Below are positions 20,606 to 49,882 of a DNA stretch of 64,000 nucleotides, one piece after another. The notes under the pieces are model-generated. The model saw only the letters and a list, made by a program, of their open reading frames with translations. It ran no database searches and was not told the origin of the DNA. The stretch is from Minisyncoccota bacterium (GTDB lineage Bacteria > Patescibacteriota > Minisyncoccia > UBA6257 > GWB1-50-10), in the NCBI GenBank assembly GCA_041665265.1, contig JBAYJE010000004.1, positions 507 through 64,506 on the forward strand, given 5' to 3'. Position 1 is the stretch's first letter. Each line of letters starts with the position of its first letter. Position numbers and translations under genes: made by a program.

Positions 20606-21922
20606 ATGAATACGGTCAAAAAGACAATCCTCCTCTTGGGAGATATTGCGGTGCTCTATGGATCTCTCGTGATAGCCCTTATTCTCCGCTATTGGGACAC
20701 TACACAGCTCTCCGAGCGCCTTGCGGCCCATATTGTGCCTTTTTCTGCGCTCTTCCCTCTCTGGCTCCTTGTGGTCTATTTACACGATCTTTATCGCTAT
20801 CGCTCATTTCGTGACTCATTTTGGTTATTCAAAAAAATTGCGCGGGTCGCCGCAATAAGTATTTCTCTCTCTATTATTGTTCTTTACTTATTTCCAACAT
20901 TTTTTGAGCTCACTCCAAAAACAAATCTCCTTTTGTTTAGTATTCTCTTTCTTCTTCTGGTCCAACTTTGGAGAACGATTGCGTTGCACTTATTTGCCTC
21001 TGGAAAAACTCGCGTCGTAATGTTGGGAAACTCGCCACTCATTACCGAAACGGTCGCTTATCTCAAAAAAAATCCACATGCAGGATATGAGCTTGTGGAA
21101 TGGGTAGATTCCGTCGATGCCTCTGCGCTTCAAAAACTTGCCACCCTTGTGCAGTCTTCTCACATTCATCTTGTGGTTATTCCACAACACCTCACCAAAG
21201 ATCTCTCAATGCTTCGCTTTATTTATCAGCTACTTCCTTTAGAGGTCTCTCTTATGCGCTTCTCAGAATTTTATGAGATTAATTTTGAAAAAGAACCACT
21301 GAAAGAACTTGATGAAGGTTGGTTTGTAGAAAACATCTCCACGCGTCGACCATTCTTTGATATTGCAAAACGCATCTTTGATATTGGGGTCGCCATTCTT
21401 TGTACTCTTATCTTCCTTATTCCTGCACTCCTTATTGCATTTCTTATTGCGGCCACTTCAAAAGGACCCATTATCTACTCCCAAAAACGCACTGGGAAAA
21501 ATGGAGTTGCGTTTACGCTCTATAAATTTAGAACCATGAACCACAACACAGGTGGCGCACTCTGGACTGAGGCAAATGATTCACGCATTACAACATTCGG
21601 CAAAATACTTCGTGCTTCACATCTTGATGAGCTTCCTCAACTTATTAATATTTTAAATAACACTATTTCATTTGTAGGTCCCCGTCCTGAACGAACCGAA
21701 CTCTCCCTCCAATATACCCAGTTCCCCTACTACGATATTCGTCATGTGGTAAAACCGGGCCTTACTGGATGGGCACAAGTATTCTATAAACCAAGTGCGT
21801 CTCTTGAAGAAGCATATGAAAAACTCTGTTATGATGTGTACTACATAAAAAACAGGTCGTTTTTTCTCGATCTGATTATCTTTCTTAAAACTATTAAATA
21901 TCTCTTTACTGCCTCCTTATGA
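20606..21922 (+). CDS. undecaprenyl-phosphate sugar phosphotransferase (WbaP/CpsE-like priming sugar transferase)
   Basis: C-terminal bacterial sugar-transferase domain KRIFDIGVA...SQKRTGKNGVAFTLYKFRTM...DELPQLINIL..SFVGPRPE; N-terminal TM bundle. Confidence 0.8.
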   Translation: MNTVKKTILLLGDIAVLYGSLVIALILRYWDTTQLSERLAAHIVPFSALFPLWLLVVYLHDLYRYRSFRDSFWLFKKIARVAAISISLSIIVLYLFPTFFELTPKTNLLLFSILFLLLVQLWRTIALHLFASGKTRVVMLGNSPLITETVAYLKKNPHAGYELVEWVDSVDASALQKLATLVQSSHIHLVVIPQHLTKDLSMLRFIYQLLPLEVSLMRFSEFYEINFEKEPLKELDEGWFVENISTRRPFFDIAKRIFDIGVAILCTLIFLIPALLIAFLIAATSKGPIIYSQKRTGKNGVAFTLYKFRTMNHNTGGALWTEANDSRITTFGKILRASHLDELPQLINILNNTISFVGPRPERTELSLQYTQFPYYDIRHVVKPGLTGWAQVFYKPSASLEEAYEKLCYDVYYIKNRSFFLDLIIFLKTIKYLFTASL

Positions 21923-23379
21923 TTGCACGACTAAAACAGCTTCTCTTTCAAAATAAAAATGCTCGTCAAACAGTTGTAAAAAATATGTTTTGGCTATCCT
22001 TTGGCCAAATAGCGAGTCGTGGTATTCGCGCATTTATTATTATTTACAGCGCACGACTTCTTGGCACTACCGAATATGGTATCTTCTCGTATGCACTCAG
22101 TCTTGCTGGATTTTTTACTCTTTTTGCGGACATCGGCCTTAGTTCTATTCTCACACGAGAAGTGTCCCGAAAACCGGAAGAGGCATCACTCTATTTCTCT
22201 ACGGCTTTTTGGATGAAAGTCGTACTTCTTATTTTCACCGCCCTTGCAGTAATTTTTATTGCTCCGTATTTTTCAAAAATAGAAGGATCTAAGATTCTTC
22301 TCCCTCTCGTTGCAATTCTTGTGAGTTTCGACAATATTAGAGAATTTTGCAACGCGTTCTTTCGAGGGAAAGAGAAAATGGAACGCGAGGCATTTATCAC
22401 ACTACTCACCAATATATCAATTGCTGTTTTTGGTTTTTTTATCCTGTACTTCTATAAGAGTGCATTTGCAATCACATTTTCATATATTTCAAGTGCGGGA
22501 TTTGGCATGGTTGCAGCAATATTTATTCTAAAAGATGAGTTCGTCCATATCGTGCGCAATTTTAGAAAAGAACTGGTCCTCGCCATTTTTTCTTCTGCGT
22601 GGTCAATCGCATTACTTGGATTGCTTGGTGTGTTTATATTAAGTATTGATGTGGTAATGCTTGGCTGGCTTCGTACCGCATCAGATGTCGGCCTTTATTC
22701 TGCGGGCCAGCGCATTGTGCAAGTACTTTATGTGCTTCCCTCAATTCTTGCTGCAAGCACCTTCCCCGCACTCTCGCGCGCAATAGGAAAGAATAACCCA
22801 ACTCAAGTGCAAAACATCATAGAACGAACCATGGCAATGACTTTTTTTGTCGCCCTTCCTCTCGTCACTGGAGGAATAATACTCGGTGTACCTATTATGG
22901 CTTTTGTGTTTGGAAACGACTATCTTCCTGGAGCACTGACCTTCCAAATTCTTATAGGGACCGCTCTTTTTGTTTTTCCTGGGACCCTGATTGGTAACTA
23001 CATCTTAGGACACGATCGCCAACGCGACATTGCAAAATTTGCCGCAATAGCTTCAGTTGGTAATATTGTTTTAAATTATATTTTTATTATTCCATTTGGT
23101 ATAGCAGGAGCTGCACTCGCCACCATAATAATACAAGCATTTTACAATTTATTTCTTTGGCGCTTTGCAAAGAAAGTTCACAATTTTCATACCCTGCGCC
23201 ACTTAAAAAAAATTGCTATTGCAACAGTCACCATGGGTGTCGCCGCACTCTTTATGAACATTGCGGGCGCCCACGTTCTCATCACTATCGCCACCTCAAT
23301 CCTTCTTTATATGGGAGTCCTTGTCGCTCTTAAAGAGAAGATTATGCATGAAATTCTTCTTGTGGTACGCGGAATATAA
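21919..23379 (+). CDS. Wzx-type polysaccharide flippase (MOP superfamily)
   Basis: 486 aa, ~12-14 TM, N-terminus NMFWLSFGQIASRGIRAFIIIYSARLLG typical of Wzx/polysaccharide biosynthesis proteins; ATGA overlap with the upstream gene. Confidence 0.7.
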   Translation: MIARLKQLLFQNKNARQTVVKNMFWLSFGQIASRGIRAFIIIYSARLLGTTEYGIFSYALSLAGFFTLFADIGLSSILTREVSRKPEEASLYFSTAFWMKVVLLIFTALAVIFIAPYFSKIEGSKILLPLVAILVSFDNIREFCNAFFRGKEKMEREAFITLLTNISIAVFGFFILYFYKSAFAITFSYISSAGFGMVAAIFILKDEFVHIVRNFRKELVLAIFSSAWSIALLGLLGVFILSIDVVMLGWLRTASDVGLYSAGQRIVQVLYVLPSILAASTFPALSRAIGKNNPTQVQNIIERTMAMTFFVALPLVTGGIILGVPIMAFVFGNDYLPGALTFQILIGTALFVFPGTLIGNYILGHDRQRDIAKFAAIASVGNIVLNYIFIIPFGIAGAALATIIIQAFYNLFLWRFAKKVHNFHTLRHLKKIAIATVTMGVAALFMNIAGAHVLITIATSILLYMGVLVALKEKIMHEILLVVRGI

Positions 23380-24080: not shown

Positions 24081-24115
24081 TCCCGTTCGCTCTCAGGCGA
24101 ATGGGATTTTTATTT
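24081..24115 (+). terminator. bidirectional rho-independent terminator
   Basis: TCCCGTTCGC-TCTCAG-GCGAATGGGA followed by TTTTTATTT; flanked by A-run on the other side. Confidence 0.6.
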
Positions 24116-25297
24116 CAAATAATTTTGAATAACTTTTGCTATCTGTTCGGCTGCATGACCGTCACCAAACGCCGTGTGTTTTTTAGACATCGCTTCGTGA
24201 GCCTCTTTATTTTCCAAAAGATGCAATGTTTCTTTTATTATTTTCTCCTTATCGGCGCCCACAAGTAAAGCCCCGCCAAAACTCACTCCCTCTGGACGTT
24301 CTGTGACCTCACGCATAACCAACGTGGGTTTCCCCATAAATGAAACTTCCTCCTGAATACCTCCTGAATCCGTAAGGACGATTTTGGATTTGCTCATAAG
24401 GAAAGTAAACAATTCGTATCCGAGAGGCTCAATGAGACGCACATTCTGAATATTTTTTAATTTTGCAAAAACTACTTCTTTTACGTTTGGATTGGGATGT
24501 ACAGGATACACGAAAATCACATCAGGAAGCCTATGAGCAAGCTCTGCGATGGCCTCCATAATATTCTGCATACCTTCCCCAAAACTTTCTCTGCGATGTG
24601 CAGTAACAAGGACAACTCTTTTAGTAACATCTCCTAATGGAATATTATATTTTTCACTGAAAAGCGAGTAAAGTCTTTTTTGCGTTGCTTCTTCGCTGTG
24701 AAATTCCATAACAAGACGCAATGCATCAAGTACAGTGTTCCCCGTTACCCAAATTGTATCACTGCTAACACCCTCCTTAAGGAGGTTTTGTTTAGCGGAT
24801 TCGGTAGATGCAAAATGTAACTCAGCAATTGAACCGGTAAGTTTACGGTTCATTTCTTCAGGAAAAGGCGAATATTTGTCACCACTTCGAAGTCCTGCCT
24901 CAACATGAGCAACTGGAATTTTAAAATGAAATGCAATAAATGCAGTAATAAAAACTGTTGAGGTATCTCCTTGCACCACCACCAAATCAGGTCGTTCCTT
25001 TTTTATAACAAAAAGAAACCTCACAACACCAAAACAAACCTTCAAAGCGCTCCACGCCTTTTTAAAAATATTAGGGCTTAGGAGTCCGTGATTACCAAAT
25101 GGTAAATCAATATCAAAGTTTGGTTTTATATCAAAAACTTTAATCGGGTCATTTAAAAGTTTTCCCTGCTGACGAAGAACACAAGTGAGCACACTCAAAT
25201 TGGATACCTTCTCCAACTCTTTAATAACTGGAGCAAGTTTAATTGCTTCTGGTCTCGTACCAAAAACCACTAAGACTTTCTTATTCTTAAGAGACAT
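24110..25297 (-). CDS. wecB: UDP-N-acetylglucosamine 2-epimerase (non-hydrolysing)
   Basis: N-terminal VFGTRPEAIKLAPVI and overall WecB/MnaA layout, 395 aa. Confidence 0.85.
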   Translation of the reverse strand: MSLKNKKVLVVFGTRPEAIKLAPVIKELEKVSNLSVLTCVLRQQGKLLNDPIKVFDIKPNFDIDLPFGNHGLLSPNIFKKAWSALKVCFGVVRFLFVIKKERPDLVVVQGDTSTVFITAFIAFHFKIPVAHVEAGLRSGDKYSPFPEEMNRKLTGSIAELHFASTESAKQNLLKEGVSSDTIWVTGNTVLDALRLVMEFHSEEATQKRLYSLFSEKYNIPLGDVTKRVVLVTAHRRESFGEGMQNIMEAIAELAHRLPDVIFVYPVHPNPNVKEVVFAKLKNIQNVRLIEPLGYELFTFLMSKSKIVLTDSGGIQEEVSFMGKPTLVMREVTERPEGVSFGGALLVGADKEKIIKETLHLLENKEAHEAMSKKHTAFGDGHAAEQIAKVIQNYLK

Positions 25298-25341: not shown

Positions 25342-26562
25342 CTAGAATAACGCCTCCCACTTAGCGGCGCAAACCTCTTTTGTAAAATGAGCTTCGGCAT
25401 AATGAAGTCCATTCTCTCCGCACTCTTTTAATGTATTACGTTCTTTGTACATTCTTACAACAACCTCTAAGGCTGCCTCCTCGTCTCCATAAAGTGCCGA
25501 GTATCCACAATGAGCTTCTTTGATTATCAAATGTCCCTCACTTTCCTTATGAAGAAGGGCTAAAACAGGTAATCCTGCCGCCAAATATCCCATAAGTTTT
25601 GCCGGCACAGCAGGGGTGGTATTTTTATTTGTAAGACTGAAAAATCCTACATCCATATCCTTTAAGAGACTCGGATAGTCTTCTTTAGAAACCCAATCTC
25701 CAAAGATAACGTTTTTTAAATCCATCTCTTTCTTCATTTTCACAAGCCTTTCTTTCTCACCTCCCTCGCCCACAAAAAGAAATACAATATCGAGATAGTT
25801 CTTTAACTTTGTTGCAACACGAAGAACGAGATCAAGTCCCTGTGATGGACCGAGCACGCCGCCAAACACAAATACAAATTTGCTTTCCAATCCAAATTGC
25901 TTTCTAAATCTTCCCGTTTTCCTTGCTTCACGAAATGGTCCCATATTTATCCAATGAGGAATTACTCGAATCTTCTCGTTTTTTACGCCACGATTTTTTT
26001 CCAGAAAAAATTGGTGCTCGTTTGAAGGAACAACTATTAAGTCAGATTTTTCATATGCACCATGCTCCATCCGCTCAAAAAACTTAATAATGGGCTCGAG
26101 AGTGAGAATCCCAAGATCAACCGCATTCTGCGGAAAAAAATCGTGCAAATTAAGAAGAAATTTTGCACCGTAAAACTTTTTTACCATTGCGGTAGTAATA
26201 GTAAGCGGAAGAGGTGGGCTATGCACAATCACTACATCGAATCGTTCTTTTGCTCTTTTTCTAAGCGCAAACCAAAAAATATAAGGTAAGAAAAGCTGTG
26301 AAATGCCTCGAATTATGAAATGAACCTTATGATGTGGTAAGGTTTTCACGCGAAGTACGCGCACCCCATCTTCGGTAGCATCTAATGCAAAGGTTACCGC
26401 ATGACCATGAGAATCAGCTAAGTTGTATTTAGGATAGGAAGTAAGAACAGTTACCTCGTGCCCCCTTTCTTTTAATGCGTTCGCCAAGTCCCCCATTAAT
26501 TCGGATGCCGATCTAAGCTCTGGCGGATAAGAATCCGTAATGATGAGAATTTTTTTCTTCAT
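25342..26562 (-). CDS. glycosyltransferase family 4
   Basis: GT-B; ILIITDSYPP N-terminus and a GT4-like C-terminal domain. Confidence 0.7.
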   Translation of the reverse strand: MKKKILIITDSYPPELRSASELMGDLANALKERGHEVTVLTSYPKYNLADSHGHAVTFALDATEDGVRVLRVKTLPHHKVHFIIRGISQLFLPYIFWFALRKRAKERFDVVIVHSPPLPLTITTAMVKKFYGAKFLLNLHDFFPQNAVDLGILTLEPIIKFFERMEHGAYEKSDLIVVPSNEHQFFLEKNRGVKNEKIRVIPHWINMGPFREARKTGRFRKQFGLESKFVFVFGGVLGPSQGLDLVLRVATKLKNYLDIVFLFVGEGGEKERLVKMKKEMDLKNVIFGDWVSKEDYPSLLKDMDVGFFSLTNKNTTPAVPAKLMGYLAAGLPVLALLHKESEGHLIIKEAHCGYSALYGDEEAALEVVVRMYKERNTLKECGENGLHYAEAHFTKEVCAAKWEALF

Positions 26563-26579
26563 ACACACATAACCGACTA

Positions 26580-28202
26580 TTACTTTACGTAACTTTCGAA
26601 CCGAGCCTTTGCTTTTTCATATTTATCGCCCCACCCCTTCATCTTTTTTAATTTCTCTTCAAGGTCCAACATTATTTTTGAGGTAATAAGAATTGACTCT
26701 ATTGAATCACCATCTTCGTTTGTAGCTATTTTCCTTCCTATCTCTTGATACATCTCTCGATAACTATCAGTCTTAAATATTCTCTTTTTTCTGATAATCC
26801 TGTGATTATCCTCGGACATATATTTTATTGCATCCGTTATTTTTACATTCCTTCCATGAACCTTGAGCTCCACGTGGTCTCTTGGTCCTACGCGTAAACT
26901 ACCTTTCTCACTAAAAGTTGTCGTGAATGAAGCTCCGTTTTCAAGCTCAATCCACACCTCAACCGCATCATCCTGTAAAAGTTTGATATCGGAATTTTTG
27001 GGCTTACTGAAATTATTAAGATGAAGAAAGTGGTCAATCTGATGACATCCGTTTGATAAAAAGGTGCTTCTTGAAACCGGCCAATTATACCAGAAAAATT
27101 CGGGTTGAATGAGTTCATACACAATGGAGTGATACGAAATAGGGTCTCCCTGTTGTATACCCAAATCCTTTAACGCCAATTTGTTAAACGTTCCATAACG
27201 CTTATGGAAGCCAATAAATAATTTTCTTCCTACTTGTCGCAATGTTTTTTCCAATTCTGCTAATTCGTCATAATCCATGACCACTGGCTTTTCTACTACC
27301 ACATAAGAACCTTGCCGTAGCGCATGCAGTGTTATTGGTACGTGAGTGTGATTGTAGCTTGCAACAAAAAATACGTCTGCTTTTTCATCTTTTCTCGGAA
27401 AAGGTGAGGAGTCCCATTGTTGCACGCGCTTCTCCATAAATATCTGTGTAGGGTCAATTTCATGCACGGACTTAATGTCCACATAAGGTCTCGAATACGG
27501 AATAATGTTTATCTTCGCATAATTGCCATATCCAAAGAGTACACCACTTTTTACACCGGGCTTTCTTGCTTTGATTTCTCCCTTCATATCAGCAGTGGGC
27601 TCTGCGTTTTGTATATCGATTCTTTCTGCTTTTGCCCAATCGGTAGCAAGAAGCTCTTTTTTGACTCCCCCTCTTAAGGTGTCTTGTGTCTCTTCGGAAA
27701 CTTCTATACCGGAATAAATACTCCATGCTTTTACTTTATTCCACCACACATTACGTAAATCAACCTTCTGTAATGAAGAATATAAAATCGTGTCCGTGGG
27801 CATATCCAACATATCGGACTTTTCAATATTAAAAATCATCTCTTTTGGCAATGAGATGCGTTCCGCAAGAGCGGGGTGCCATGGAGCCACAAATCTTACT
27901 ATCTCTCCCACCTTAAAATTCCCATCATCGGCACTCTCAATAATTCTTCCTATGCCACAAGAAATATATTTATCATTGCGTCTATCCTCTCGAAGGCGTG
28001 ACCATGTCTTTGTAAATAATCCTTGAAACCCTACTACTGGGAAATAATTAATTAAGAGCCGTATACTTTTTGGCCTTGTATGATAAACATTCTCTAGTTT
28101 TTCAAGGTTCTTCCATGCAAGAACCTGAATTCTGTACTCACTTTTATTTCGAAAATAATCTAAAAAACCACTTCTCCATTTTTTCCCAGTAAGTATTCTC
28201 AT
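26580..28202 (-). CDS. fusion protein: unknown N-terminal domain (~210 aa) + Gfo/Idh/MocA-family NAD(P)-dependent oxidoreductase
   Basis: C-terminal half has Rossmann start KSGVLFGYGNYAKINI and the EKP motif (YVVVEKPVVMD) of Gfo/Idh/MocA sugar dehydrogenases; N-terminal half unrecognised. Confidence 0.5.
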   Translation of the reverse strand: MRILTGKKWRSGFLDYFRNKSEYRIQVLAWKNLEKLENVYHTRPKSIRLLINYFPVVGFQGLFTKTWSRLREDRRNDKYISCGIGRIIESADDGNFKVGEIVRFVAPWHPALAERISLPKEMIFNIEKSDMLDMPTDTILYSSLQKVDLRNVWWNKVKAWSIYSGIEVSEETQDTLRGGVKKELLATDWAKAERIDIQNAEPTADMKGEIKARKPGVKSGVLFGYGNYAKINIIPYSRPYVDIKSVHEIDPTQIFMEKRVQQWDSSPFPRKDEKADVFFVASYNHTHVPITLHALRQGSYVVVEKPVVMDYDELAELEKTLRQVGRKLFIGFHKRYGTFNKLALKDLGIQQGDPISYHSIVYELIQPEFFWYNWPVSRSTFLSNGCHQIDHFLHLNNFSKPKNSDIKLLQDDAVEVWIELENGASFTTTFSEKGSLRVGPRDHVELKVHGRNVKITDAIKYMSEDNHRIIRKKRIFKTDSYREMYQEIGRKIATNEDGDSIESILITSKIMLDLEEKLKKMKGWGDKYEKAKARFESYVK

Positions 28203-28229
28203 ATGTGGTATGATTTCGCGTCACTCGCC

Positions 28230-29069
28230 TTACTTACCGCGAATTATCTTCTCGGTCTCATAAAGCTTTGCGTCTATAAGAAAACGATACCAGAACCCCT
28301 GTAAAAAGTGAAACGCGAGTCCTTCCATTCCATCTAAAAATCCAAATCGGAAGAAATATCGATAAATGAAGTATAAAAATGCCCTTAAGAACCTTGGTGA
28401 CTGGTAATATAGATTATTTTTAAGCCAACGCTTTCTTTCTGTTTGTGAGCCATCAAGCTTTTCAGAAACACTTTCATTCTGTGCTAAAATTGCATTCACC
28501 TCACGTGTCGAATACTTATTGTATCGTTCAATCCACCACGAAAGCTCATTTAGGTTCTCATCAATAAAGTCATTTTTAAAATTCGCTGTTCTTCCCTGCA
28601 GTAAAACGATATGCTCATCCATCTCACGCTCCTCTGACCGTGCTTTATTTTTTCTAAAAAGACGCAAAATCCATGTCGGATAATATGCACCATGTTTTAT
28701 CCAACGTCCCATAAAATAGACTTTTCGTTTTATGTAAAATCCTGAGACATCATCCGCGACACGAGGAAGAGTTTCTATAATTTCTTTCTCAAGTTCTTTG
28801 GTAATAACCTCATCGGCATCAAGTCTTAATATCCACTCGTGTTTGATTTCTATATTATCAAGCGCCCAATTAAATTGGGTTGCTTGATTCTTAAACTCGT
28901 GTTGCACCACACGTGCTCCATATTTCTTTGCAATATCAAGCGTTTTGTCTGTGGAATACGAATCAACCACAATAACATCATTAGACAAATTCAAAATACT
29001 CTCCAAGCACTTAGTGAGATTTACCTCTTCATTGTAAGTAAGGATGATAATGCTTATATTCGATTCCAT
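28230..29069 (-). CDS. glycosyltransferase family 2
   Basis: ISIIILTYNEEVNLTKCLESI ... DxD region; ORF extends to 29156, start chosen at MESNIS. Confidence 0.75.
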   Translation of the reverse strand: MESNISIIILTYNEEVNLTKCLESILNLSNDVIVVDSYSTDKTLDIAKKYGARVVQHEFKNQATQFNWALDNIEIKHEWILRLDADEVITKELEKEIIETLPRVADDVSGFYIKRKVYFMGRWIKHGAYYPTWILRLFRKNKARSEEREMDEHIVLLQGRTANFKNDFIDENLNELSWWIERYNKYSTREVNAILAQNESVSEKLDGSQTERKRWLKNNLYYQSPRFLRAFLYFIYRYFFRFGFLDGMEGLAFHFLQGFWYRFLIDAKLYETEKIIRGK

Positions 29070-29070
29070 T

Positions 29071-29712
29071 TTATTTTTTTCTTGCAAGAACCACCATTGA
29101 TTTGGAAAATGGGCGGAGCCGTCCATAGTAATCATATTTTTCAATCTCGAACCCATTCTGCTTCAAAAGTCTTGTCATGGTTCTTTTAGAGAAGAAGCGC
29201 ACGTGAGGGCCTGTCGGATCGAAGTGTCTATCAAAATCAAAAAGGACAATCATCAGATTTTTTAAAAATCCGTGATATGGAACAGTTATCAAGGCCTTTC
29301 CACCAGACTTCAACACACGAGAAATCTCACCCACTGCATTTTCTGTGTCATATATATGCTCAATTACCTCAGAAGAAAAAACAAAATCCACCGATGAGTC
29401 AGAAAGTGGGATTGCTCCCCCATCAACTATTTTGTGAAAAATCGCATTTGGCACTTTTGTGCGCGCAGTTTGAAGTGCGGTCTCGGATACATCGCAGCCA
29501 ATAAGCTTCGCCTTCGGATTTAAATACAAAATTTCAGAAAGAATGTGCCCCTTGCCGCAACCAAAATCAAGGATCGTTACTTCTTTGTCTTTCGGTATAT
29601 AAGGAAACAACACGGGCCACTTAAGACCGAAGTCAGAAAGTTCGCTCTTGTCTCCTTCCCAATATCGCTCGTAAAATATTTTATTTTTTGCTGGAATTTC
29701 CATATTTTTCAA
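29071..29712 (-). CDS. class I SAM-dependent methyltransferase
   Basis: Motif I ILDFGCGKGH; post-I acidic residue. Confidence 0.65.
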   Translation of the reverse strand: MKNMEIPAKNKIFYERYWEGDKSELSDFGLKWPVLFPYIPKDKEVTILDFGCGKGHILSEILYLNPKAKLIGCDVSETALQTARTKVPNAIFHKIVDGGAIPLSDSSVDFVFSSEVIEHIYDTENAVGEISRVLKSGGKALITVPYHGFLKNLMIVLFDFDRHFDPTGPHVRFFSKRTMTRLLKQNGFEIEKYDYYGRLRPFSKSMVVLARKK

Positions 29713-41234: not shown

Positions 41235-42211
41235 ATTGAAATGTATGTGTCTTTTTTACTTTCGATATCATTTTTTAACATTTCTCTTAACACTCCTTTC
41301 CAGTCATATTCCGGGCTCCATCCCAATGCGCGAATCTTACTTGCGTCTCCCTGAAGATACGGGACCTCATTCGGACGAAAATATTTTTTATCTATCTCTA
41401 CATACTTCTGCCACTCAAGGCCGACCTCATGAAAACAGAATTCAAGTGCCTCCTTAATACTATGAGCCTCTCCTGTAGCAACCACGAAATCGCCTGGCTT
41501 TTCCTGTTGCATCATAAGATAAATTGCTCTCATGTAATCTTTTGAATGTCCCCAGTCACGAATCGCATCAAGATTTCCAAATGGTATTTTTTTAATTTCC
41601 CCGCGTAGTAATGCTGCTATACTTCTTGTAATCTTTCGTGTTACAAATGTTTCCCCTCTTCGTGGACTTTCGTGATTAAAAAGAATCCCATTTACCGCAA
41701 ACAAGCCATATCCTTCGCGATAAATTCTCGTGAGGTGGAATGCTCCCAACTTTGAAACACCATAAGGACTTTGTGGTCTAAACTCTGAATTCTCATTAAA
41801 CGGGGGTGGGGTACGCGGAGCTCCAAACATCTCAGAACTTGAGGCTTGATAATATTTCGTCTGTGGAGCGTGTACTCGAAGATACTCCAAAATACTTACA
41901 GGGCCAAGAGTGTTTGCAGCAAGCGTGAAATAGGGAACATCGAACGAAACCCGCACTTGACTCATTGCACCAAGATTGTAAATCTCGTCAGGTTTAAATT
42001 CTTGAATAAGATTATGCATCGAAACGGGGTCGGTAAGATCTCCATATTTCGTATCAAAATTTTCGTTCTTATACAAAGAATCAATTCGTGAAGTATTAAA
42101 ATTACTTGACCTTCGTTGTACGCCACAGACACGATATCCCTTTTCAAGAAGTAGCTCAGAAAGATAGCTTCCGTCTTGACCTGTCACTCCAGTAATCAGT
42201 GCCTTTTTCAT
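41231..42211 (-). CDS. gmd: GDP-mannose 4,6-dehydratase
   Basis: KKALITGVTGQDGSYLSELLLEKGYRVCGVQRRSSNFNTSRIDSLY is the classic Gmd N-terminus; ORF extends to 42247. Confidence 0.85.
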   Translation of the reverse strand: MKKALITGVTGQDGSYLSELLLEKGYRVCGVQRRSSNFNTSRIDSLYKNENFDTKYGDLTDPVSMHNLIQEFKPDEIYNLGAMSQVRVSFDVPYFTLAANTLGPVSILEYLRVHAPQTKYYQASSSEMFGAPRTPPPFNENSEFRPQSPYGVSKLGAFHLTRIYREGYGLFAVNGILFNHESPRRGETFVTRKITRSIAALLRGEIKKIPFGNLDAIRDWGHSKDYMRAIYLMMQQEKPGDFVVATGEAHSIKEALEFCFHEVGLEWQKYVEIDKKYFRPNEVPYLQGDASKIRALGWSPEYDWKGVLREMLKNDIESKKDTYISI

Positions 42212-42252
42212 GTTTTTAATAATAATCTCAAAAAAATACAAGGTCAAACAAA

Positions 42253-43005
42253 CTAAGAATATTTTTTTGCAATTAATTCATCAGAATTCTCTACCAGAGC
42301 GCCGGAGAACATAGGCACTACCTCATACCCAAGTTCCTCCAATAAAGTGACGCATTTCTGTCTTGATGTTTTTCCATGAATTGCGAGCAATATTGTGGGA
42401 TAAAATTCCTTTAAAATCTTATATGCGCCACGCAAGACTTCAAACTCTGCCCCCTCCACATCTATCTTTATAACATTAGGGGGTGCTATTTTCTTTTCTT
42501 CTAAAAGATGGTCGAGGGTGACAATGCGAACACTAAGAGATCCCCCCGAAGGAGAAAGCATTCCCGTAAAGGTACTTTCCCCTTCTTTAAATAAGGAGAA
42601 TCCTTCGGTGTCTCCTACTGCGGCCTCTATAACTGTCACGTTTTTGCACCCATTCAGTAAGGTGTGTTTCCGCAAGTAATTAGCATTTAAAGGAAATGGT
42701 TCAAATGAATACACCAATCCGTCTCTCCCGGAAAGAAAAGATGCAAGAAGTGTATAAAACCCAACATGAGCTCCTATGTCATACACCACACTCCCTCTTT
42801 TTATCGCTTCAACGAACTTAGTCTGCAGAGGTAATTCATAAGATCCTAACCAATATCCATTCACTCCCGATCCTTTTATCCATTTTTTTCCGAATAAGGG
42901 CCCTCTTAATATTCTCATCACACAGCCCGGAGGAATTATCATCAACAATGACCTTAGAAGCCTTCCAAGGAAACTTTTTGTGGAAATATTTGAAAAATTA
43001 ACCAT
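42253..43005 (-). CDS. FkbM-family methyltransferase
   Basis: VYDIGAHVGFYTLLAS...FEPFPLNANYL. Confidence 0.65.
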   Translation of the reverse strand: MVNFSNISTKSFLGRLLRSLLMIIPPGCVMRILRGPLFGKKWIKGSGVNGYWLGSYELPLQTKFVEAIKRGSVVYDIGAHVGFYTLLASFLSGRDGLVYSFEPFPLNANYLRKHTLLNGCKNVTVIEAAVGDTEGFSLFKEGESTFTGMLSPSGGSLSVRIVTLDHLLEEKKIAPPNVIKIDVEGAEFEVLRGAYKILKEFYPTILLAIHGKTSRQKCVTLLEELGYEVVPMFSGALVENSDELIAKKYS

Positions 43006-44197
43006 GTTTTATTGAAGAAACCGCTTTAATAATGCCCTCAATGTCTTTTTCTTGACTATATCCTTGAATAATTTGAAACGACCTTAAACCAAAGCGCTCC
43101 CGCACTTCTTGGTTTGATACAATTTTTAAAATTGCTCCCGCAAGATCGTCTATGTTATCAAGTTGAGTGATATATCCATTTTCTCCAATACGAACCAAAT
43201 CGGAGCCACATCCCACTACATCAGAAACAACAACAGGAAGAGAAAAACACATCGCTTCATTTACCACCATTCCCCATGTCTCACCAACCCCCGAAGGCAA
43301 AACAAAAACATCAGCCATACTCATATATTGATACACCTTATCTTTTGTTTGGAAGCCAGCAAAATGAACTTTCTCTAAGTGAGCTCCCTTCGCATACAAC
43401 TCGAGACTACTTCGTAATGCCCCATCCCCCACAAACGCAAGCGTTGGAATTTGAGTGAATACATTGCCCTTCACTATTTTTTCATATGCTTTAAGAAGAT
43501 TGAGAGGTCTCTTTTTCTCTATAAGTTTTCCCACGAATAAAATGAGTGGGGCCTTTGAATCTATCCCACACTGCTCACGCAATTCATTTTTTCTAGACTG
43601 GAAAACATGCGCTTTTTCAATACACAACTCGTTATTTGTAGCATACGGTGCAAAAAAAAGTTTGCGGGGAGGGACCCCAAAAAATTCATAAAATTTTTTA
43701 TTTTCGTTTCCTATATATAAAAATCCAGTTGCTATCTTAAAAAGATTTTTAAGTATGAAACGTTTTATGTTTTTAAGCGCTCCTCTTTTTATTATTTCTT
43801 GATGTAGTGGGTTTTCCCCCCAAATAAATATCGGGGTGCGCATAAAAAAGCACACCAGAAAGGCAAACCAGAAAGTAGGTACATTCCACCCATATACCAA
43901 AACTGCATCATACTTATTCTTCAAAAGCTCTGTAATAATTCCAACATTCACCCACATATCATTCTTCTCGGAAATCTTCTGCGGAAGAAGATTTTTTAAA
44001 AAAATGTGCGGATATCCATCAAGAACCCCTTCTCCCCAATTAACTTGCGTGTTAAATTCGCTATCATAATCAAACTTTCCCACCCCGATGTCAGTACAAT
44101 AATATACAGTAGATTCTAAAAAAGAGTTGTGTGCAATTTTTTTGAAAAGAGGGGCATTTGTAGGACCTGCGCGAGCTATCAAAATGGCAATTTTCAT
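42998..44197 (-). CDS. glycosyltransferase family 4
   Basis: ...GETWGMVVNEAMCFSLPVVVSDVVGCGSDLV. Confidence 0.75.
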   Translation of the reverse strand: MKIAILIARAGPTNAPLFKKIAHNSFLESTVYYCTDIGVGKFDYDSEFNTQVNWGEGVLDGYPHIFLKNLLPQKISEKNDMWVNVGIITELLKNKYDAVLVYGWNVPTFWFAFLVCFFMRTPIFIWGENPLHQEIIKRGALKNIKRFILKNLFKIATGFLYIGNENKKFYEFFGVPPRKLFFAPYATNNELCIEKAHVFQSRKNELREQCGIDSKAPLILFVGKLIEKKRPLNLLKAYEKIVKGNVFTQIPTLAFVGDGALRSSLELYAKGAHLEKVHFAGFQTKDKVYQYMSMADVFVLPSGVGETWGMVVNEAMCFSLPVVVSDVVGCGSDLVRIGENGYITQLDNIDDLAGAILKIVSNQEVRERFGLRSFQIIQGYSQEKDIEGIIKAVSSIKHG

Positions 44198-44457
44198 AAT
44201 AGTAAATCTAAATTTCTGAAGTCGACGCCTGTAAAAACTTTACCTTGCGAACTCACACACATTCAAGTATATTTTTTTGTTCCTTCAATGCGTATAAGAA
44301 AAACAGCAAAAGAATCTCACTAACAAGACATCGAATTCTTCCCAAAAGGGGGGTGTTCCGCGAGATGAGACCTAAAAAATCCCGCGCCACCATTAATAAT
44401 TATTTTTCTCTTCATACTCCTCCTATAATAGGCTTTATCTAATCATCTTGAATGACT

Positions 44458-45021
44458 CTATTTTTGAAGTAAACTCTTAACCTTCTCATCGTTTGGCCAA
44501 TATTTAAGGATTTCTTCGCTTATTTTCTGAATATTCTCCTCATCTCCCTTTGCAGAATACAATCCAAGAAAACCGTATAAAACTGGTGGAAGTTGTGGGC
44601 CAATTCTTTTTGCTTTCTTTAAATAATTTTCGGCTATTACAAAATCTTCGCTATGTCCAAACTTTTGCCAAAGAATAGAATGTAGCCTGCTCCCATTCAA
44701 TAAATGAATTACGCTGTTTGCAAAAAGATGAGGTTCGAGGTAATCAACAAGCGCCCTCGACGCCTCCTCGGACATATTCTCCTGAAAAATAATTTCTGAG
44801 ATGTCATTGCTTAAAAATTTTATAACCTCTTCATCTCCCACAGGCGAATTAAAAAAGACCGGTGTATCAAATATCGTTTTAAACTCTCCTACAGATCTCG
44901 CCGTTTGAACCTTACCCAACGCGCCAATATAGCTCGATGCTTTTACAAGTGGTTTATATGCTCCATAAATCAAACTTAATGTCGCCAAGATAATTCCAAT
45001 AACAATGATAATTGATCTCAT
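44458..45021 (-). CDS. hypothetical membrane-anchored protein
   Basis: 187 aa, N-terminal TM, helical soluble domain. Confidence 0.35.
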   Translation of the reverse strand: MRSIIIVIGIILATLSLIYGAYKPLVKASSYIGALGKVQTARSVGEFKTIFDTPVFFNSPVGDEEVIKFLSNDISEIIFQENMSEEASRALVDYLEPHLFANSVIHLLNGSRLHSILWQKFGHSEDFVIAENYLKKAKRIGPQLPPVLYGFLGLYSAKGDEENIQKISEEILKYWPNDEKVKSLLQK

Positions 45022-45025
45022 ATAA

Positions 45026-46384
45026 TTATTTATTTTTTGTTCGTGTTCCGTTATTTAATTCAGGCGACTGAAACTGATAAACACCAAACGCTAAGACAAG
45101 AAATACATTTAAATAAATTGGGGACACATCAAAAAGCACAATTCCCTGCACAAGATATGCAACAAGTATGGAAAAGATGAGTGTCTGCTCAAGAATAGAT
45201 TTTGAACTAAGCACCGAGTTGTTTTTTCGTTTTTTCCAAAATTGCATATAAAATACTACAAATATTCCTAGAAAACTAACAAGCCCAAGAGCGCCCGTCT
45301 CTACTAAATAATCAAAGTAAATGCTATGAGCCCTATCAAACCACGCACCAAACCCCTCACTTGGTTTAAAATAATTTAAATCCATGTGTCTCTCAAACAC
45401 CCGAATATAATTTTCAGGCCCCCAACCAAGCAAAGGACGGTCCTTAAAACCTTCGATGGCGGTATGCCACATATATGTGCGATGTTCAAATGTTTCCGCC
45501 GTAATAGAAATATCAAAAATACGAGAGCCGGGGAGAGACTTGATAAAAGGTGTGTCTTTTAATTTTATGAACGTTCCCACAATAAGCAGAAGAGCAATCA
45601 TAGCCCCAATCCCCCACTTTCTCAGTCGTTCTTTGGAAAAGACTATATATCCAATGCCTACAAGCAACGATGCGATAAGTCCCACAAATGCGCCTCGCGT
45701 TGCCGCCATATAAAACGTTATAAGAGAGATAGCCGATACCAAATAAAGCACAATAGCACCAAAAGAAGATAGTCTCGTGCGATATTTGCTTACCAAAATA
45801 TACCCCGCATAGAAAAGCATAAAGATGGCATATGCCGCCGCATATGCAGAATTTCCAATAGAACCCGAGAAACGATATCCGGGTTGCGAAAACTTACCAC
45901 CGATATATCCGCCAATCTCTGCATTTGCTAAATATCCGTACAAAATCATTAAAAGCCCACCAACAAGAGAAAATCCAAACAACTTTTGCCAATCTTTTTC
46001 TTCTTTAAAAAGAGTTGCGAGAAGTGTAAACCAAATCCAAAAATGAATGAGTTGAAGGCCTCCCTCACCACGTTCAAAATTTGACCAGAAGGACATCTTA
46101 GGGTCAACACCAAAAAATCCCGCCAAAAGAAAAATAAACACAAAGAGTGATACCGCGATTACTAAAGGTTGCTTTAAAACAAATTTAACTCTGTTCCACA
46201 TCAACGACTGATTATCGTAAAACAAGAGTCCAAGAAGGAACAAAATAAGAGCAATATCAACCGTAGAGCGAAACCATACATATTTTCCTACTATAAAAGG
46301 GAATAAGGTTGAGGTCGTTACGATAAAAATTCCTAATACAGGAAATAAGAGAAAAAACTTAGAAACCTTAAAATAATTAAACAT
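45026..46384 (-). CDS. O-antigen ligase/Wzy_C-family membrane protein (candidate polymerase or oligosaccharyltransferase)
   Basis: ~11 TM; conserved Wzy_C motif AHSIYFDYLVETGALGLVSF (H-N/S-x-Y-L-x3-E-x-G) in the large extracytoplasmic loop. Confidence 0.6.
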   Translation of the reverse strand: MFNYFKVSKFFLLFPVLGIFIVTTSTLFPFIVGKYVWFRSTVDIALILFLLGLLFYDNQSLMWNRVKFVLKQPLVIAVSLFVFIFLLAGFFGVDPKMSFWSNFERGEGGLQLIHFWIWFTLLATLFKEEKDWQKLFGFSLVGGLLMILYGYLANAEIGGYIGGKFSQPGYRFSGSIGNSAYAAAYAIFMLFYAGYILVSKYRTRLSSFGAIVLYLVSAISLITFYMAATRGAFVGLIASLLVGIGYIVFSKERLRKWGIGAMIALLLIVGTFIKLKDTPFIKSLPGSRIFDISITAETFEHRTYMWHTAIEGFKDRPLLGWGPENYIRVFERHMDLNYFKPSEGFGAWFDRAHSIYFDYLVETGALGLVSFLGIFVVFYMQFWKKRKNNSVLSSKSILEQTLIFSILVAYLVQGIVLFDVSPIYLNVFLVLAFGVYQFQSPELNNGTRTKNK

Positions 46385-46429: not shown

Positions 46430-46459
46430 AAAAAACCCCCGAAGGGGTTTTTTTGATTC
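46430..46459 (-). terminator. rho-independent terminator downstream of the surface-protein gene
   Basis: AAAAAACCCC-CGAA-GGGGTTTTTTT perfect hairpin with flanking A/T runs (bidirectional). Confidence 0.7.
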
Positions 46460-46495: not shown

Positions 46496-49400
46496 TTAAG
46501 TCTTTGCAGTTACTGTTGAAAGTGAAGGAGTGCCATCAACATAAAGATTGATGATAGTATCCGACAAATCATTATCAGTTACAGGATTACCTGAGAATCC
46601 GAGATCAGCTTCATCCACACTGTAGAGGACGTTGCCGAGCGCAGATACTGCGAGACCAAACGTGTCGTTGTTTAACGCCGTTCCAGTCGTCTTCACGGTG
46701 AAATATCTCCATGAACCACCATCAATCTTACGATTTGCTGAAGTCACAAGAGTGAGATCAAAAGGAATCGTAGATGATGCTCCAGTTGCAGTAGATGTTG
46801 CAATGTATGTTACTGATGCATCGCTCTGCGTACCACCCATGATGGATGAGTAGAGACCGAAGCTTACAGAATTTGTTGCAGATCCACCGTTTGCAAGGCT
46901 CAACGTTGAGCTTGAGAGGTAAATCGGAGCAGAACCATTGTTGGTAATCTTAAAGATTCCAACAGTTTGTCCAGCCGACAAACCAATCGTTGCTGCTGAA
47001 GTAGGAGAAACTGCGGAGATTGAGACGCTTGCTGGCGTTACGTATGTCGCGCCGCTTGCTGCCGCAGAACCCGTCTTTGTACCTGCCGTTGAAGCAGTGA
47101 CTGCACCCTTGATTGCGATATCACCAGTTGTTGAAGCAATCTGGAATTTAAAGCTATCGCCAAGCTGTGCTGATCCACCTGCCGCTACGTTTGCCTTTAC
47201 GTAAATTGTTACGCCAGTTGTAGGAACAGCTGCGGACAATAAGTTATCACTTGAAGTGAAAGTAACCTGACACTTGCTTGCGTCGCACGTATCAAACTGA
47301 GGTGCGGTTGCAAACGGTGTCGTAGCAGCTCCTTCATAAAGTGCGATGTTATTGAGCGTAGTTGTTGCAACGCTGTTTGCGGCTGTGGTCGTCGCAGTAA
47401 TCTTCAAAGAAGTGACCTTCTGAGCTTCATACTGTGAGGTTAACTTGAATGCGAAAAGTGTCGCACCCGAAGTTCCTACCTGCATCACTTGGTTCTGGGA
47501 AGGTGAAGCAGTTGATCCAGAAACCACGGACAAGATAAGGTTACCCGCTGCCACATGTGCCATGGCCTGTCCACCACCTGCATAGGTAATGTCAGTACCA
47601 TTTGTCAACGAATTTCCAGTTACTGAACCAACTGCCGTTAATGCGGAAGTTGATGAAGCAATTGAGAATGTGTGTGAACCGGTTCCTGAAACTGCATCCG
47701 CTTTAAGACGAAGAGTGACCGGAGTCGCTTTCGTTACCAAAATTGGAGTTGAGAAGTTAAAGGTTACAGTTGCCGCATTCGTTGCTGTTGAACCACTGGT
47801 TACAAGCGGTGATGTGTCGCTATCCTTATACATTGAAAGATTTGCAACTTCACCTACTGCACCACCAGAATGTGTTACCACAATCTTTGAGACCTTCACA
47901 TCCTCTCCACCCGACTGGGCATTGAGTTGGAAGTCTGCATACTCATAGCCATTCGTACCCGCAACCACAGAATTTGCTACCGGAGTAGAAAGTGTAGTTA
48001 CCGCGAGTGCCGCTGCTTTGACTGCAATTGAGAGACCAGAAACAACGCCTGTACCTGGATCAACGAGATCGTTTGTGACGAGTCTCTTTGCCTGGATAAG
48101 GTCGAAGTTAGTAACAGTATAGCTGCTTGCTGCTACTGCTGAAGAATTAATTGAGCCTTCGATTGTGATTGCTGAATCCACACCCGCAGTTAAGACTGTG
48201 TATGAGGAAAGAGTAAACGTTGAAGCACTAGCATAACTAATATTCGTAGCTGCAGTGCTGTATACGATTGCGCCATTAATCTTCACATAGATTGTGCCTG
48301 TAAGTGCAGTGGAGCCTGAGCTACTTGCAACATAGAAGCTTACCTGACGAAGTTCGAAGTTCTCTCCAGTTGGCTTTGCATTAAATTTCGCAAGCACCAC
48401 GTTAGTAGTACCAGGAGTTACTGCAGAGCTTGGTGAGTCAGATGCTCTCGTCAAGGTCATTGAGCCAGAACCAATGGTCTGAATGTTGAATCCATTACCA
48501 ATTGGGAAGGCTGTGTCATTTGAACCAACTCCAGGAATAACGGAGACGTTTGTTGCTGCGCCATAGAGATCAATATCATAGTTGTTATACACTACGAAGT
48601 TGATTGTCTTTGTCGTGCCATTTACGATCTTCGCTTTTACTGTGAAATCTTTTGTCTGACCCTTATCAATAAAGTAAGGAGACGCAAGATTGAACGTGAC
48701 GTTCTTATCGCTTACGAGGCCGGTTGAAAGAATCGTGCCATCTTGTGCAATAAGTTGTACATCGCTCAAATCACTTGCCGCTGCGTTACCGTAGTTGTAC
48801 AAAGCCAACTTGCGGAGGTAGACGCCCTCGTTTGAGGAAGTTTCCTGCACGCGGAATTTGGTGATTTCTTGTGAGTTCGCTGGGTCAACATTTAAAGTTG
48901 AAGAACCAGTGCTCGTCAACACGTCTAAGGTGATTGTCGAGAGTGATGAACCACCATTTACAATGCTCATAGCAGTTCCATAAATAGGAAATGCTCCTGA
49001 GATTGAAGTGGTGTCAGCAGTAATAGACGCAATGTCATTAATGCTGAAACTGACGGTACCTGAGTAGTCACCAGTTACAAGGTTAAACCGGACCGTAAGG
49101 GTCTCAGAAGAACCTGCGGCAACCATCACAGGATCAGATGACATAGTTACAATGATGCTGTTGTCAGCATTCACTGAAGTCACCACATTTCCATGACGTA
49201 CGCCTTTTGAATCAACGATATCAACACCATTCAAGTTCGTATTCGCAACGAATCCGCTCTTCATGATTTTGATTGCGCTAATTTTTACTGCCTTTGAGCC
49301 TGCAGTAAATGCTACTTTCATAGCAGGGTTAAATGCAGTTCCCGAACCGATTGTCCTTGCAGAAGGATTATCAGAAGCGAGAGAGACAACGAGGTCGGTT

Positions 49401-49882
49401 CCTGAAGGAACTGTTACAACCGGAGTTGTGCCAGTGCCAGGAGTGACTGTGCCGCTCATGCTATTCATCTTTGCACGGCTGATTGCTCCAAAATAACCAA
49501 CTGCAGGGGAAATCCCTTCTGCAGCCTGCCACGCGCTGAGCGCAGCTTTAGTCATAGGACCAAATGTCGTGGTCGGAGCTGAGAGTTTCAAGAATCCTTT
49601 GCTAATCAAAACGCCCTGGAGTGCTTTTACATCTGCGCCAGTTGAGCCAAGAGTGAGGTTCTTAGCAAAATTGTATGCAGAGGTTGATGCGCTCTGTTGG
49701 CCGAGTTGAGCTTGCAAAGTTTGGATCTGCGCTAAAAGCGCAGCGATTTGTGCCTGTAAATCCACCGATTGGGCGAATACAGGTCCAGAAAGTGTTGCAA
49801 TCGTTGCGATCGCAATACTAACTGTTGCAATTTTTTGTGTTAATTTACTCATTTTATACTTTCTTTTCGACTTTGCATTCAT
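46496..49882 (-). CDS. large secreted cell-surface (S-layer-like) protein with N-terminal peptidoglycan-binding domain
   Basis: 1128 aa; signal peptide ...LSGPVFA|QS; coiled-coil Q/A/L stretch; PG_binding_1-like LTLGSTGADVKALQGVLISKGF...GPMTKAALSAWQAAEGI; remainder is T/S/A/G/V-rich beta-type repeats. Confidence 0.6.
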   Translation of the reverse strand: MNAKSKRKYKMSKLTQKIATVSIAIATIATLSGPVFAQSVDLQAQIAALLAQIQTLQAQLGQQSASTSAYNFAKNLTLGSTGADVKALQGVLISKGFLKLSAPTTTFGPMTKAALSAWQAAEGISPAVGYFGAISRAKMNSMSGTVTPGTGTTPVVTVPSGTDLVVSLASDNPSARTIGSGTAFNPAMKVAFTAGSKAVKISAIKIMKSGFVANTNLNGVDIVDSKGVRHGNVVTSVNADNSIIVTMSSDPVMVAAGSSETLTVRFNLVTGDYSGTVSFSINDIASITADTTSISGAFPIYGTAMSIVNGGSSLSTITLDVLTSTGSSTLNVDPANSQEITKFRVQETSSNEGVYLRKLALYNYGNAAASDLSDVQLIAQDGTILSTGLVSDKNVTFNLASPYFIDKGQTKDFTVKAKIVNGTTKTINFVVYNNYDIDLYGAATNVSVIPGVGSNDTAFPIGNGFNIQTIGSGSMTLTRASDSPSSAVTPGTTNVVLAKFNAKPTGENFELRQVSFYVASSSGSTALTGTIYVKINGAIVYSTAATNISYASASTFTLSSYTVLTAGVDSAITIEGSINSSAVAASSYTVTNFDLIQAKRLVTNDLVDPGTGVVSGLSIAVKAAALAVTTLSTPVANSVVAGTNGYEYADFQLNAQSGGEDVKVSKIVVTHSGGAVGEVANLSMYKDSDTSPLVTSGSTATNAATVTFNFSTPILVTKATPVTLRLKADAVSGTGSHTFSIASSTSALTAVGSVTGNSLTNGTDITYAGGGQAMAHVAAGNLILSVVSGSTASPSQNQVMQVGTSGATLFAFKLTSQYEAQKVTSLKITATTTAANSVATTTLNNIALYEGAATTPFATAPQFDTCDASKCQVTFTSSDNLLSAAVPTTGVTIYVKANVAAGGSAQLGDSFKFQIASTTGDIAIKGAVTASTAGTKTGSAAASGATYVTPASVSISAVSPTSAATIGLSAGQTVGIFKITNNGSAPIYLSSSTLSLANGGSATNSVSFGLYSSIMGGTQSDASVTYIATSTATGASSTIPFDLTLVTSANRKIDGGSWRYFTVKTTGTALNNDTFGLAVSALGNVLYSVDEADLGFSGNPVTDNDLSDTIINLYVDGTPSLSTVTAKT

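Follow-up and report, generated by a model that had tools for sequence, protein, structure and literature searches.

The locus described here raises the question of where a membrane enzyme of the O-antigen ligase type delivers its glycan in a bacterium that shows no lipopolysaccharide (LPS) genes in the 64 kb examined. The enzyme is a 452-residue Wzy_C-domain protein with a WaaL fold, encoded at 45026–46384 on the minus strand of a 64-kb stretch of contig JBAYJE010000004.1 (the whole of which we refer to as the window), and its gene lies between that of an 1128-residue surface protein (46496–49882, −) and a long run of glycan-assembly genes. The host is a member of the Candidate Phyla Radiation (CPR), its protein being filed by NCBI under Candidatus Paceibacterota, and the same genes are also present on metagenome contigs of 146–258 kb. 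A first-pass annotation of the sequence had called the organism Gram-positive-like or CPR-like, the latter correctly, and the window free of LPS-core genes, and had suggested that the enzyme acts as an O-oligosaccharyltransferase (O-OTase) on the adjacent surface protein. We hold with moderate confidence that this is a surface-layer (S-layer)-type protein O-glycosylation locus of a Paceibacteria bacterium.

The arrangement of the genes at the head of the glycan run is not that first reported. The Wzy_C gene had been placed at the end of the locus with its stop codon some 110 bp from the start of the surface-protein gene, which is wrong; both genes are read from the minus strand, and the 111 bp that separate them extend from the stop of the surface-protein gene to the start of the Wzy_C gene, so that Wzy_C heads the glycan run on that strand. 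The next gene starts 4 bp after it and encodes a 187-residue protein (44458–45021, −) with a single transmembrane (TM) segment and a tetratricopeptide repeat (TPR)-like domain, which we regard as the partner of Wzy_C. Inside the 111-bp gap is a hairpin resembling an intrinsic terminator, AAAAAACCCCTTCGGGGGTTTTTT (46430–46453, −), and another terminator-like hairpin lies upstream of the surface-protein gene (50071–50087, −). With hairpins on both sides, one (46453–46430) just after its stop and the other (50087–50071) about 190 bp before its start, the surface-protein gene looks like a separate transcription unit. The 187-residue gene and the flanking hairpins had been missed, as had a 540-residue oxidoreductase and a 354-residue P-loop protein farther along the run. 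Gene calls throughout combine a map of open reading frames (ORFs) with Pfam and NCBIfam scans of the window.

The Wzy_C domain occupies residues 216–372 of the enzyme and scores 73.1 bits against a Pfam cut-off of 31.7, in a profile check that had been proposed for 45026–46384. A structural model based on 26 orthologues (predicted local distance difference test, pLDDT, 84; predicted template modeling score, pTM, 0.88) has twelve transmembrane helices and the WaaL fold with its large external loop, here at about residues 274–353. The best fold match is WaaL itself (PDB 7TPG/7TPJ), at a sequence identity of only 14–16%, followed by FtsW and RodA of the SEDS (shape, elongation, division and sporulation) proteins; sequence searches against solved structures, whether with the single sequence or with a 26-sequence profile, returned nothing relevant. 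R230, R302 and H353 are invariant in the 26 orthologues and stand 72 and 51 residues apart, a spacing like that of the set R215/R288/H338 needed by Escherichia coli WaaL and conserved in PglL as R224/R298/H349 (PMC3643930). In a plain pairwise global alignment WaaL R288 falls on R302, with R215 and H338 displaced by 2–4 residues, and with hhalign the family profile could not be aligned to E. coli K-12 WaaL. The case for equivalence of these catalytic residues with those of WaaL and PglL, resting on invariance, spacing and local motifs, is suggestive. The NCBIfam matches of the protein are all below cut-off and non-specific, the best of them, to the IctB family, lying far below. Sequence and fold cannot tell an O-OTase from a ligase or polymerase that acts on a wall or lipid acceptor. 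WaaL proper was considered and rejected, as there are no LPS genes in the window and, to our knowledge, neither an outer membrane nor the lipid A-core that serves as the WaaL acceptor is expected in CPR bacteria.

The 187-residue protein, whose TM segment is N-terminal, matches the last ~185 residues of longer Wzy_C homologues (647–661 residues) in other Paceibacteria at 42–44% identity (E 1e-47). In 80 species-level loci taken from GTDB genomes a homologue directly follows Wzy_C in all but three, as a separate gene in 70 and as a fusion in 7 (77/80 in all), and three of the four long Wzy_C paralogues scanned in other lineages are also Wzy_C–TPR fusions. The TPR_19 family matches 14 of 18 members of the family, with a best E value of 6e-6. 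This is the same pattern of splitting and fusion as in the proposed S-layer O-OTases, since WsfB (like PglL) carries a C-terminal TPR, and WsaB lacks one but adjoins wsaA, which encodes a 168-residue TPR protein (PMC2943079). A twelve-helix core with both ends in the cytoplasm, as in WaaL, means that the extra helix would place the TPR domain outside the cell, and the domain accordingly is predicted to face outward. The invariant pairing of Wzy_C and TPR also supports the hypothesis that TPR modules may present protein acceptors to such O-OTases.

The association of the enzyme with the surface protein is conserved when viewed from either gene. In 55 loci the sequence reaches 4.5 kb or more upstream of Wzy_C, and 43 of them have a surface-protein homologue there on the same strand; these homologues are of 1077–1215 residues, with the exception of that in locus L060 (630 residues), and contain 21–28% Ser+Thr. 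For the reverse test metagenome contigs were scanned with a narrower surface-protein alignment, the broader one being too divergent for scanning that collection, and a Wzy_C homologue lies no more than 4.5 kb downstream of the surface protein in 26 of the 27 loci with 1.8 kb or more of downstream sequence (near-duplicates among the contigs reduce the number that are independent to about 21). The co-occurrence that the first-pass annotation had asked to see in relatives is thus present in both directions. It also persists on a different backbone, as the trio of Magasanikbacteria locus L086 lies not behind ClpB and HtrA genes but behind genes for an extracytoplasmic function (ECF) sigma factor and a DUF5667 protein, in the order surface protein, a 674-residue Wzy_C–TPR fusion, and then methyltransferase, DegT and family 4 glycosyltransferase (GT4) genes.

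Many of these loci contain more than one Wzy_C gene. In about 20 of them (including L011, L021, L032 and L061) a second, longer Wzy_C paralogue is located between the surface protein and Wzy_C–TPR, 2–4 kb upstream of the Wzy_C orthologue; these paralogues are 728–908 residues long and 26–34% identical. Four longer paralogues were scanned, all with the Wzy_C domain and three (L011, L032 and L061) with a fused C-terminal TPR. Three Wzy_C genes stand in tandem in locus L055, and two Wzy_C–TPR pairs are present in L042. A dedicated pilin O-OTase was entertained and rejected because no pilin gene adjoins Wzy_C, either in the window or in the loci examined. Two short contigs labelled as a Spirochaetia metagenome-assembled genome (L015) and a Nanoarchaeota one (L050) have the CPR-type Wzy_C–TPR pair, labels that are probably due to binning contamination in the public records, and many loci titled 'uncultured Candidatus Saccharibacteria' also carry the Paceibacteria-type locus. 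A surface-protein homologue sits directly behind the ECF sigma factor and DUF5667 genes both in L086 (7941–9757) and in L087 (5642–9338), the latter with parts of a diversity-generating retroelement (bAvd and reverse transcriptase) just upstream.

The surface protein has a number of properties expected of an S-layer subunit. It was correctly described as secreted with a peptidoglycan (PG)-binding domain, having a signal peptide and a PG_binding_1 domain (28.3 bits, cut-off 23), and it contains 26% Ser+Thr, against 11% in neighboring proteins, with an isoelectric point of 6.5. The AlphaFold model (pLDDT 82) predicts a signal peptide, a coiled-coil helix, a three-helix PG-binding domain, a flexible Thr/Pro/Gly-rich linker at residues ~142–160, where model confidence is low, and a chain of beta-sandwich domains that continues to the C-terminus. 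The long Thr/Ser-rich repeats reported earlier are therefore only half right; the Ser/Thr richness is real, and the Ser/Thr-rich part is not low-complexity repeats, being predicted to form an uninterrupted chain of folded immunoglobulin (Ig)-like domains, so that the structure prediction that had been called for depicts a wall-anchored array of Ser/Thr-rich Ig-like domains. Only two cysteines are present, C866 and C871 (motif C-DASK-C), and their near-invariance in the family suggests a disulfide. Secretion, a wall anchor and a composition with few cysteines, weak acidity and many hydroxyl residues are typical of S-layer proteins. Across Paceibacteria the homologues are 1100–1180 residues long and 50–82% identical, and in Peregrinibacteria relatives, where they are annotated as S-layer proteins, an S-layer homology (SLH) domain takes the place of PG_binding_1; such a swap of the anchor domain is typical of wall-bound surface-layer proteins. 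Foldseek comparison of the model with the PDB recovered nothing beyond Ig-like arrays of a generic kind (PrgB, antigen I/II, integrins and ciliary ASH-domain proteins), an outcome that is neutral as to an S-layer.

There is also indirect evidence of S-layers in this group. Cryo-electron microscopy of a Nealsonbacteria culture revealed an apparent S-layer, for which its authors named PG-binding proteins as candidates, and a preprint (bioRxiv 10.1101/2024.05.28.596244) presents, in the passages available to us, predicted hexagonal lattices and S-layer candidates of 1131–1185 residues from Nealsonbacteria, Kaiserbacteria and Parcubacteria. In the same passages the size and taxa of these candidates match those of the surface-protein family, as a resemblance that falls short of confirmed membership in it, and neither glycosylation nor neighboring Wzy_C–TPR genes are mentioned there. 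Taken together, these observations make the 1128-residue protein likely to be an S-layer protein. Its gene is preceded by an unusually long non-coding stretch of about 440 bp (49883–50320, −) with GC-rich, potentially structured segments, in which Rfam and tRNA scans found no RNA element.

The sugar genes behave quite differently from the genes at the head of the run. In the 48 loci with at least 8 kb downstream of Wzy_C, the enzyme is 40–69% identical (median 50%), and in 44 of these no more than one of the 22 sugar genes of the window recurs downstream at 45% identity or above. Most loci do have sugar-assembly genes of some kind after Wzy_C–TPR (GT4, GDP-mannose 4,6-dehydratase (GMD), DegT and methyltransferase genes), and it is their identity that changes. 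A conserved Wzy_C ahead of rapidly exchanged sugar genes fits a transferase that tolerates different glycans and whose acceptor is conserved. Wzy polymerases change together with their repeat unit, and the conservation of Wzy_C amid sugar-gene turnover is, judged against this general knowledge, the opposite of how a Wzy polymerase behaves. One part of the island does recur: the run of GMD, cupin, FkbM, Methyltransf_11, DegT, GT10-like and 354-residue P-loop genes (36165–42247, −) is present in the same order in L016, and in L034 as far as the GT10-like gene only, at 52–75% identity in the two. Found in these two loci and missing from most of the other relatives, it has the distribution of a mobile sugar cassette. 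The G+C content of the sugar cluster (28000–46000) is 0.37–0.40 and that of its flanks 0.41–0.45, the surface-protein gene having the highest (0.435–0.45), a profile that fits an exchangeable glycan island adjoining a compositionally distinct gene.

The island encodes what would be needed to build and export a complex glycan, and all of the glycan genes listed in the first-pass annotation were recovered by the ORF map and the Pfam and NCBIfam scans at the positions it gave. Synthesis would begin with a WbaP/WcaJ-type polyprenyl-phosphate hexose-1-phosphate transferase (20606–21922, +; Bac_transf, and TIGR03025 at 311 bits, cut-off 295.6), which would charge undecaprenyl phosphate with a hexose-1-phosphate. 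At this far border of the locus is also the gene for a membrane-anchored DsbA/thioredoxin-like protein (19691–20731, −), whose ORF shares 126 nt with the beginning of the priming-transferase ORF, so that one of the two start codons has probably been set too early. Eight glycosyltransferases would then extend the chain to an oligosaccharide of roughly nine sugars. Four of them are GT4 enzymes (25342–26568, 29681–30886, 34011–35171 and 42998–44197, all −, the last being among the downstream genes most often kept in relatives), three are GT2 enzymes (28230–29156, 30889–31944 and 35177–36211, −), all seven identified by Pfam, and the eighth is a weak GT10-like match (37294–38343, −; E 2e-6). UDP-ManNAc could be supplied through the wecB-type UDP-GlcNAc 2-epimerase (24110–25297, −; Pfam and NCBIfam), and an amino sugar derived from GDP-4-keto-6-deoxymannose through GMD (41231–42247, −), the WbuC-like cupin (40845–41234, −) and the DegT aminotransferase (38330–39430, −). 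The GT10-like enzyme probably transfers this GDP-derived amino sugar; taken as a unit, the cassette at 37294–43005 probably makes and transfers a methylated form of it, to judge from the gene families present.

Further modification would fall to five methyltransferases, a count that agrees with the earlier one. These are two of the Methyltransf_11 type (29071–29712, − by Pfam, and 39435–40022, −), two FkbM methyltransferases (39997–40830 and 42253–43005, −), and one (31934–32698, −; Pfam) that had been called TylF-like and is of the Methyltransf_24/CmcI type. Also in the run are the 540-residue GFO/IDH-like oxidoreductase (26580–28202, −) and the 354-residue protein with a weak HprK-like P-loop match (36165–37229, −). 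The Wzx-type flippase (21919–23379, +; Wzx/Polysacc_synt, from Pfam and NCBIfam) would turn the glycan to the outer face of the membrane, where an OafA-like Acyl_transf_3 O-acyltransferase with 8 TM-like segments (32797–33981, +; Pfam) may acylate it. The cluster has no polytopic membrane proteins other than Wzx, the acyltransferase and Wzy_C, so that it holds no second Wzy candidate; a hidden one was looked for and rejected, the ORFs without a Pfam match (167, 129, 187 and 354 residues) having no more than two TM-like segments each. The 64-kb window, to which the search was confined, contains no LytR-CpsA-Psr (LCP) protein, no Wzz/polysaccharide co-polymerase (PCP) and no second polymerase, the rest of it being housekeeping genes, and the cluster has no ABC transporter (Wzm/Wzt), with Wzx there instead. 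The first-pass annotation had recognized that a conventional Wzy polymerase with a separate ligase would undo its proposal, and the window shows no sign of that arrangement. With no polymerase partner, the glycan probably remains a single complex oligosaccharide, which Wzy_C and its extracytoplasmic TPR partner would transfer whole from undecaprenyl pyrophosphate to Ser/Thr residues of the secreted, PG-anchored surface protein, with other secreted proteins as possible further acceptors.

A number of observations weigh against this assignment as an S-layer O-glycosylation locus. We know of no experimental evidence for the glycosylation of any CPR protein. The solved structure closest to the enzyme, WaaL, has a lipid acceptor, and the structures compared included neither an O-OTase nor a Wzy polymerase. 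PglL_A (PF15864) is absent, Wzy_C being the only Pfam family found in the protein at E≤0.001, and Wzy_C_2 (PF11846) likewise goes undetected at that threshold, as both do in the O-OTases TfpO and TfpM (PMC12645811). The window's own copy of the 187-residue protein has no significant TPR match, and the Foldseek search of the PDB gave no S-layer-specific match for the surface protein. ClpB and HtrA are also syntenic upstream, which means that part of the kept gene order may be simple conservation of the backbone. In 10 of the 55 loci of the forward test Wzy_C–TPR has no surface protein upstream, its neighbors being for example RNase Y, SMC or penicillin-binding protein (PBP) genes, and the distant surface-protein homologue of L087 is followed by a TM–TPR protein only, with no Wzy_C within 10 kb. 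Each of the computational checks suggested in the first-pass annotation turned out favorably, and its O-OTase proposal, which has gained from the Wzy_C domain and WaaL fold, the TPR partner and the synteny, is supported in part; the absence of PF15864 and a fold that cannot settle the acceptor keep the support partial.

These same points leave room for Wzy_C–TPR to be a polymerase or ligase for a non-protein acceptor, which would build a secondary cell-wall polymer, a lipoglycan or a capsule-like polysaccharide from the Wzx-flipped units, with the surface-protein gene adjoining only through the clustering of envelope genes. S-layer genes do lie near wall-polymer genes in Firmicutes, and the Wzy_C family takes in both WaaL ligases and some Wzy polymerases; the lipid acceptor of WaaL, the sub-threshold and non-specific NCBIfam matches, the ten loci that lack the surface protein upstream and the general conservation of ClpB and HtrA all suit this explanation as well. 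A polymerase, though, would hardly stay 40–69% identical while the sugar genes turn over, and neither Wzz/PCP, LCP nor a second Wzy-like protein is at hand in the window. TPRs are protein-interaction modules that accompany the proposed S-layer O-OTases, the PG_binding_1 anchor needs no secondary wall polymer, and the link to the surface protein survives the change of backbone in L086 and holds in 26 of 27 loci of the reverse test; we consider a non-protein acceptor unlikely, if deserving of serious attention. The enzyme could instead be a general O-OTase whose main targets are other secreted proteins such as type IV pilins, the surface protein being at most a minor substrate. Enzymes of the PglL type are general, with pilins as their classical targets (PMC3643930), the two or three tandem Wzy_C paralogues of many lineages would suit different acceptors, and Wzy_C–TPR does occur away from the surface protein, beside RNase Y, SMC or PBP genes. 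Against this, neither the window nor any of the loci examined has a pilin gene beside Wzy_C, and the surface protein is a much more regular neighbor (43/55 and 26/27), which makes such an enzyme improbable here. Very improbable, in our view, is the absence of any functional link, in which case Wzy_C–TPR would be a conserved membrane module with a housekeeping role (in lipid-linked chemistry of the IctB or SEDS type, for example) that happens to be placed between the gene of the surface protein and a polysaccharide island of variable content. It would agree with IctB as the best, if far sub-threshold, NCBIfam match, with the SEDS proteins FtsW and RodA as the second-best fold matches and with the lack of conservation of the downstream sugar genes, but sugar-assembly genes of some kind do follow Wzy_C–TPR in most loci, and the invariant Arg/Arg/His set appears to match ligase-type chemistry on a donor linked to undecaprenyl pyrophosphate.

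The components and the logic of the locus are those of known S-layer O-glycosylation loci. The slg systems of WsaB and WsfB (PMC2943079), compared here by architecture and descriptions rather than by sequence, likewise have an S-layer gene with its own transcript beside the glycan cluster (sgsE by slg), a WbaP-type priming enzyme, a predicted O-OTase with a Wzy_C domain, a TPR module that is either fused (WsfB) or encoded by a small neighboring gene (WsaA), and a methylated glycan. They differ in that their glycan is polymerized and exported by a Wzm/Wzt ABC transporter, whereas the present locus has Wzx, and in their S-layer proteins, which are unrelated in sequence and differently anchored; the host here is moreover a CPR bacterium. 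In the SLCT-11 cassette of Clostridioides difficile (PMC6254364) a glycan cluster also adjoins the S-layer gene, but export is by an ABC transporter, the glycan is repeating and the cassette is found in some strains only, in contrast to the class-wide arrangement here. The 27-kb cluster of Tannerella forsythia (PMC6120980) is of similar size and shares Wzx, several glycosyltransferases, several methyltransferases and wecB, and it makes a non-polymerized complex decasaccharide that is O-linked to S-layer proteins; that organism is a diderm of the Bacteroidota, and its oligosaccharyltransferase is not identified in that report and not encoded beside the S-layer genes. The pilin O-OTases TfpO/PilO, TfpM and PglS, together with PglL, have a similar Wzy_C/WaaL-like core and conserved Arg/Arg/His residues to which those of the present enzyme may correspond, and their genes often lie directly beside that of the target in the same orientation (PMC3643930, PMC12645811). 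Unlike them, the present enzyme has an 1128-residue wall-anchored protein as its proposed target, is without detectable PglL_A or Wzy_C_2, and has a TPR partner in 77 of 80 loci. From WaaL (7TPG/7TPJ) it is set apart by an identity of only 14–16% and by the lack of a sequence-level match in profile searches.

What is distinct in this locus, beside its Wzx-based export and a new surface-protein family with a PG-binding anchor, is an apparently separate branch of Wzy_C proteins with a TPR module, conserved across a whole class of a major uncultured radiation. Full-text literature searches found no paper joining CPR bacteria with an O-antigen ligase and none on S-layer glycosylation in CPR bacteria, and Patescibacteria go unmentioned in a 2026 review of S-layer glycosylation. 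The statement in the first-pass annotation that such systems are essentially undescribed in CPR-type bacteria agrees with these searches; it needs to be qualified by the 2024 preprint, the available part of which already predicts Patescibacteria S-layer proteins of similar size.

A wider proposal can be put forward tentatively, as possible though on balance doubtful: that surface protein, Wzy_C and TPR protein together form the core system for an S-layer glycoprotein in Paceibacteria and neighboring CPR classes. The S-layer observed on ultra-small bacteria would then consist of the ~1100-residue protein with its PG-binding (or SLH) domain, its O-glycosylation would fall to WaaL-fold O-OTases of a CPR-specific branch that depends on a TPR module to bind the acceptor, and the rapidly exchanged sugar island would provide a species-specific glycan coat. 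Such a coat would influence how hosts and phages are recognized. The CPR or Patescibacteria, which account for a large share of bacterial diversity, live attached to other cells, and the molecular characterization of their envelope has hardly begun. If the assignment is right, it names a class-wide surface-layer protein gene, the enzyme pair responsible for decorating the protein and the variable island by which the glycan is determined, and Wzy_C-type S-layer O-glycosylation, described in the literature consulted for a few Firmicutes, would extend to monoderm-like ultra-small bacteria. It would also provide targets open to testing, now that some Paceibacteria relatives grow in co-culture.

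Two further features of the window are worth recording. Between clpB and the surface-protein gene is a gene for a 247-residue protein (50321–51064, −) with about eight TM segments and no family match, which overlaps the last 56 nt of clpB; homologues occupy the same position in L005, L006, L007, L019 and L027, and from this placement the protein may be part of the envelope module. Farther out, Rfam places a group I catalytic intron at 63256–63493 (−), with a score of 63.6 bits where the gathering score is 50.

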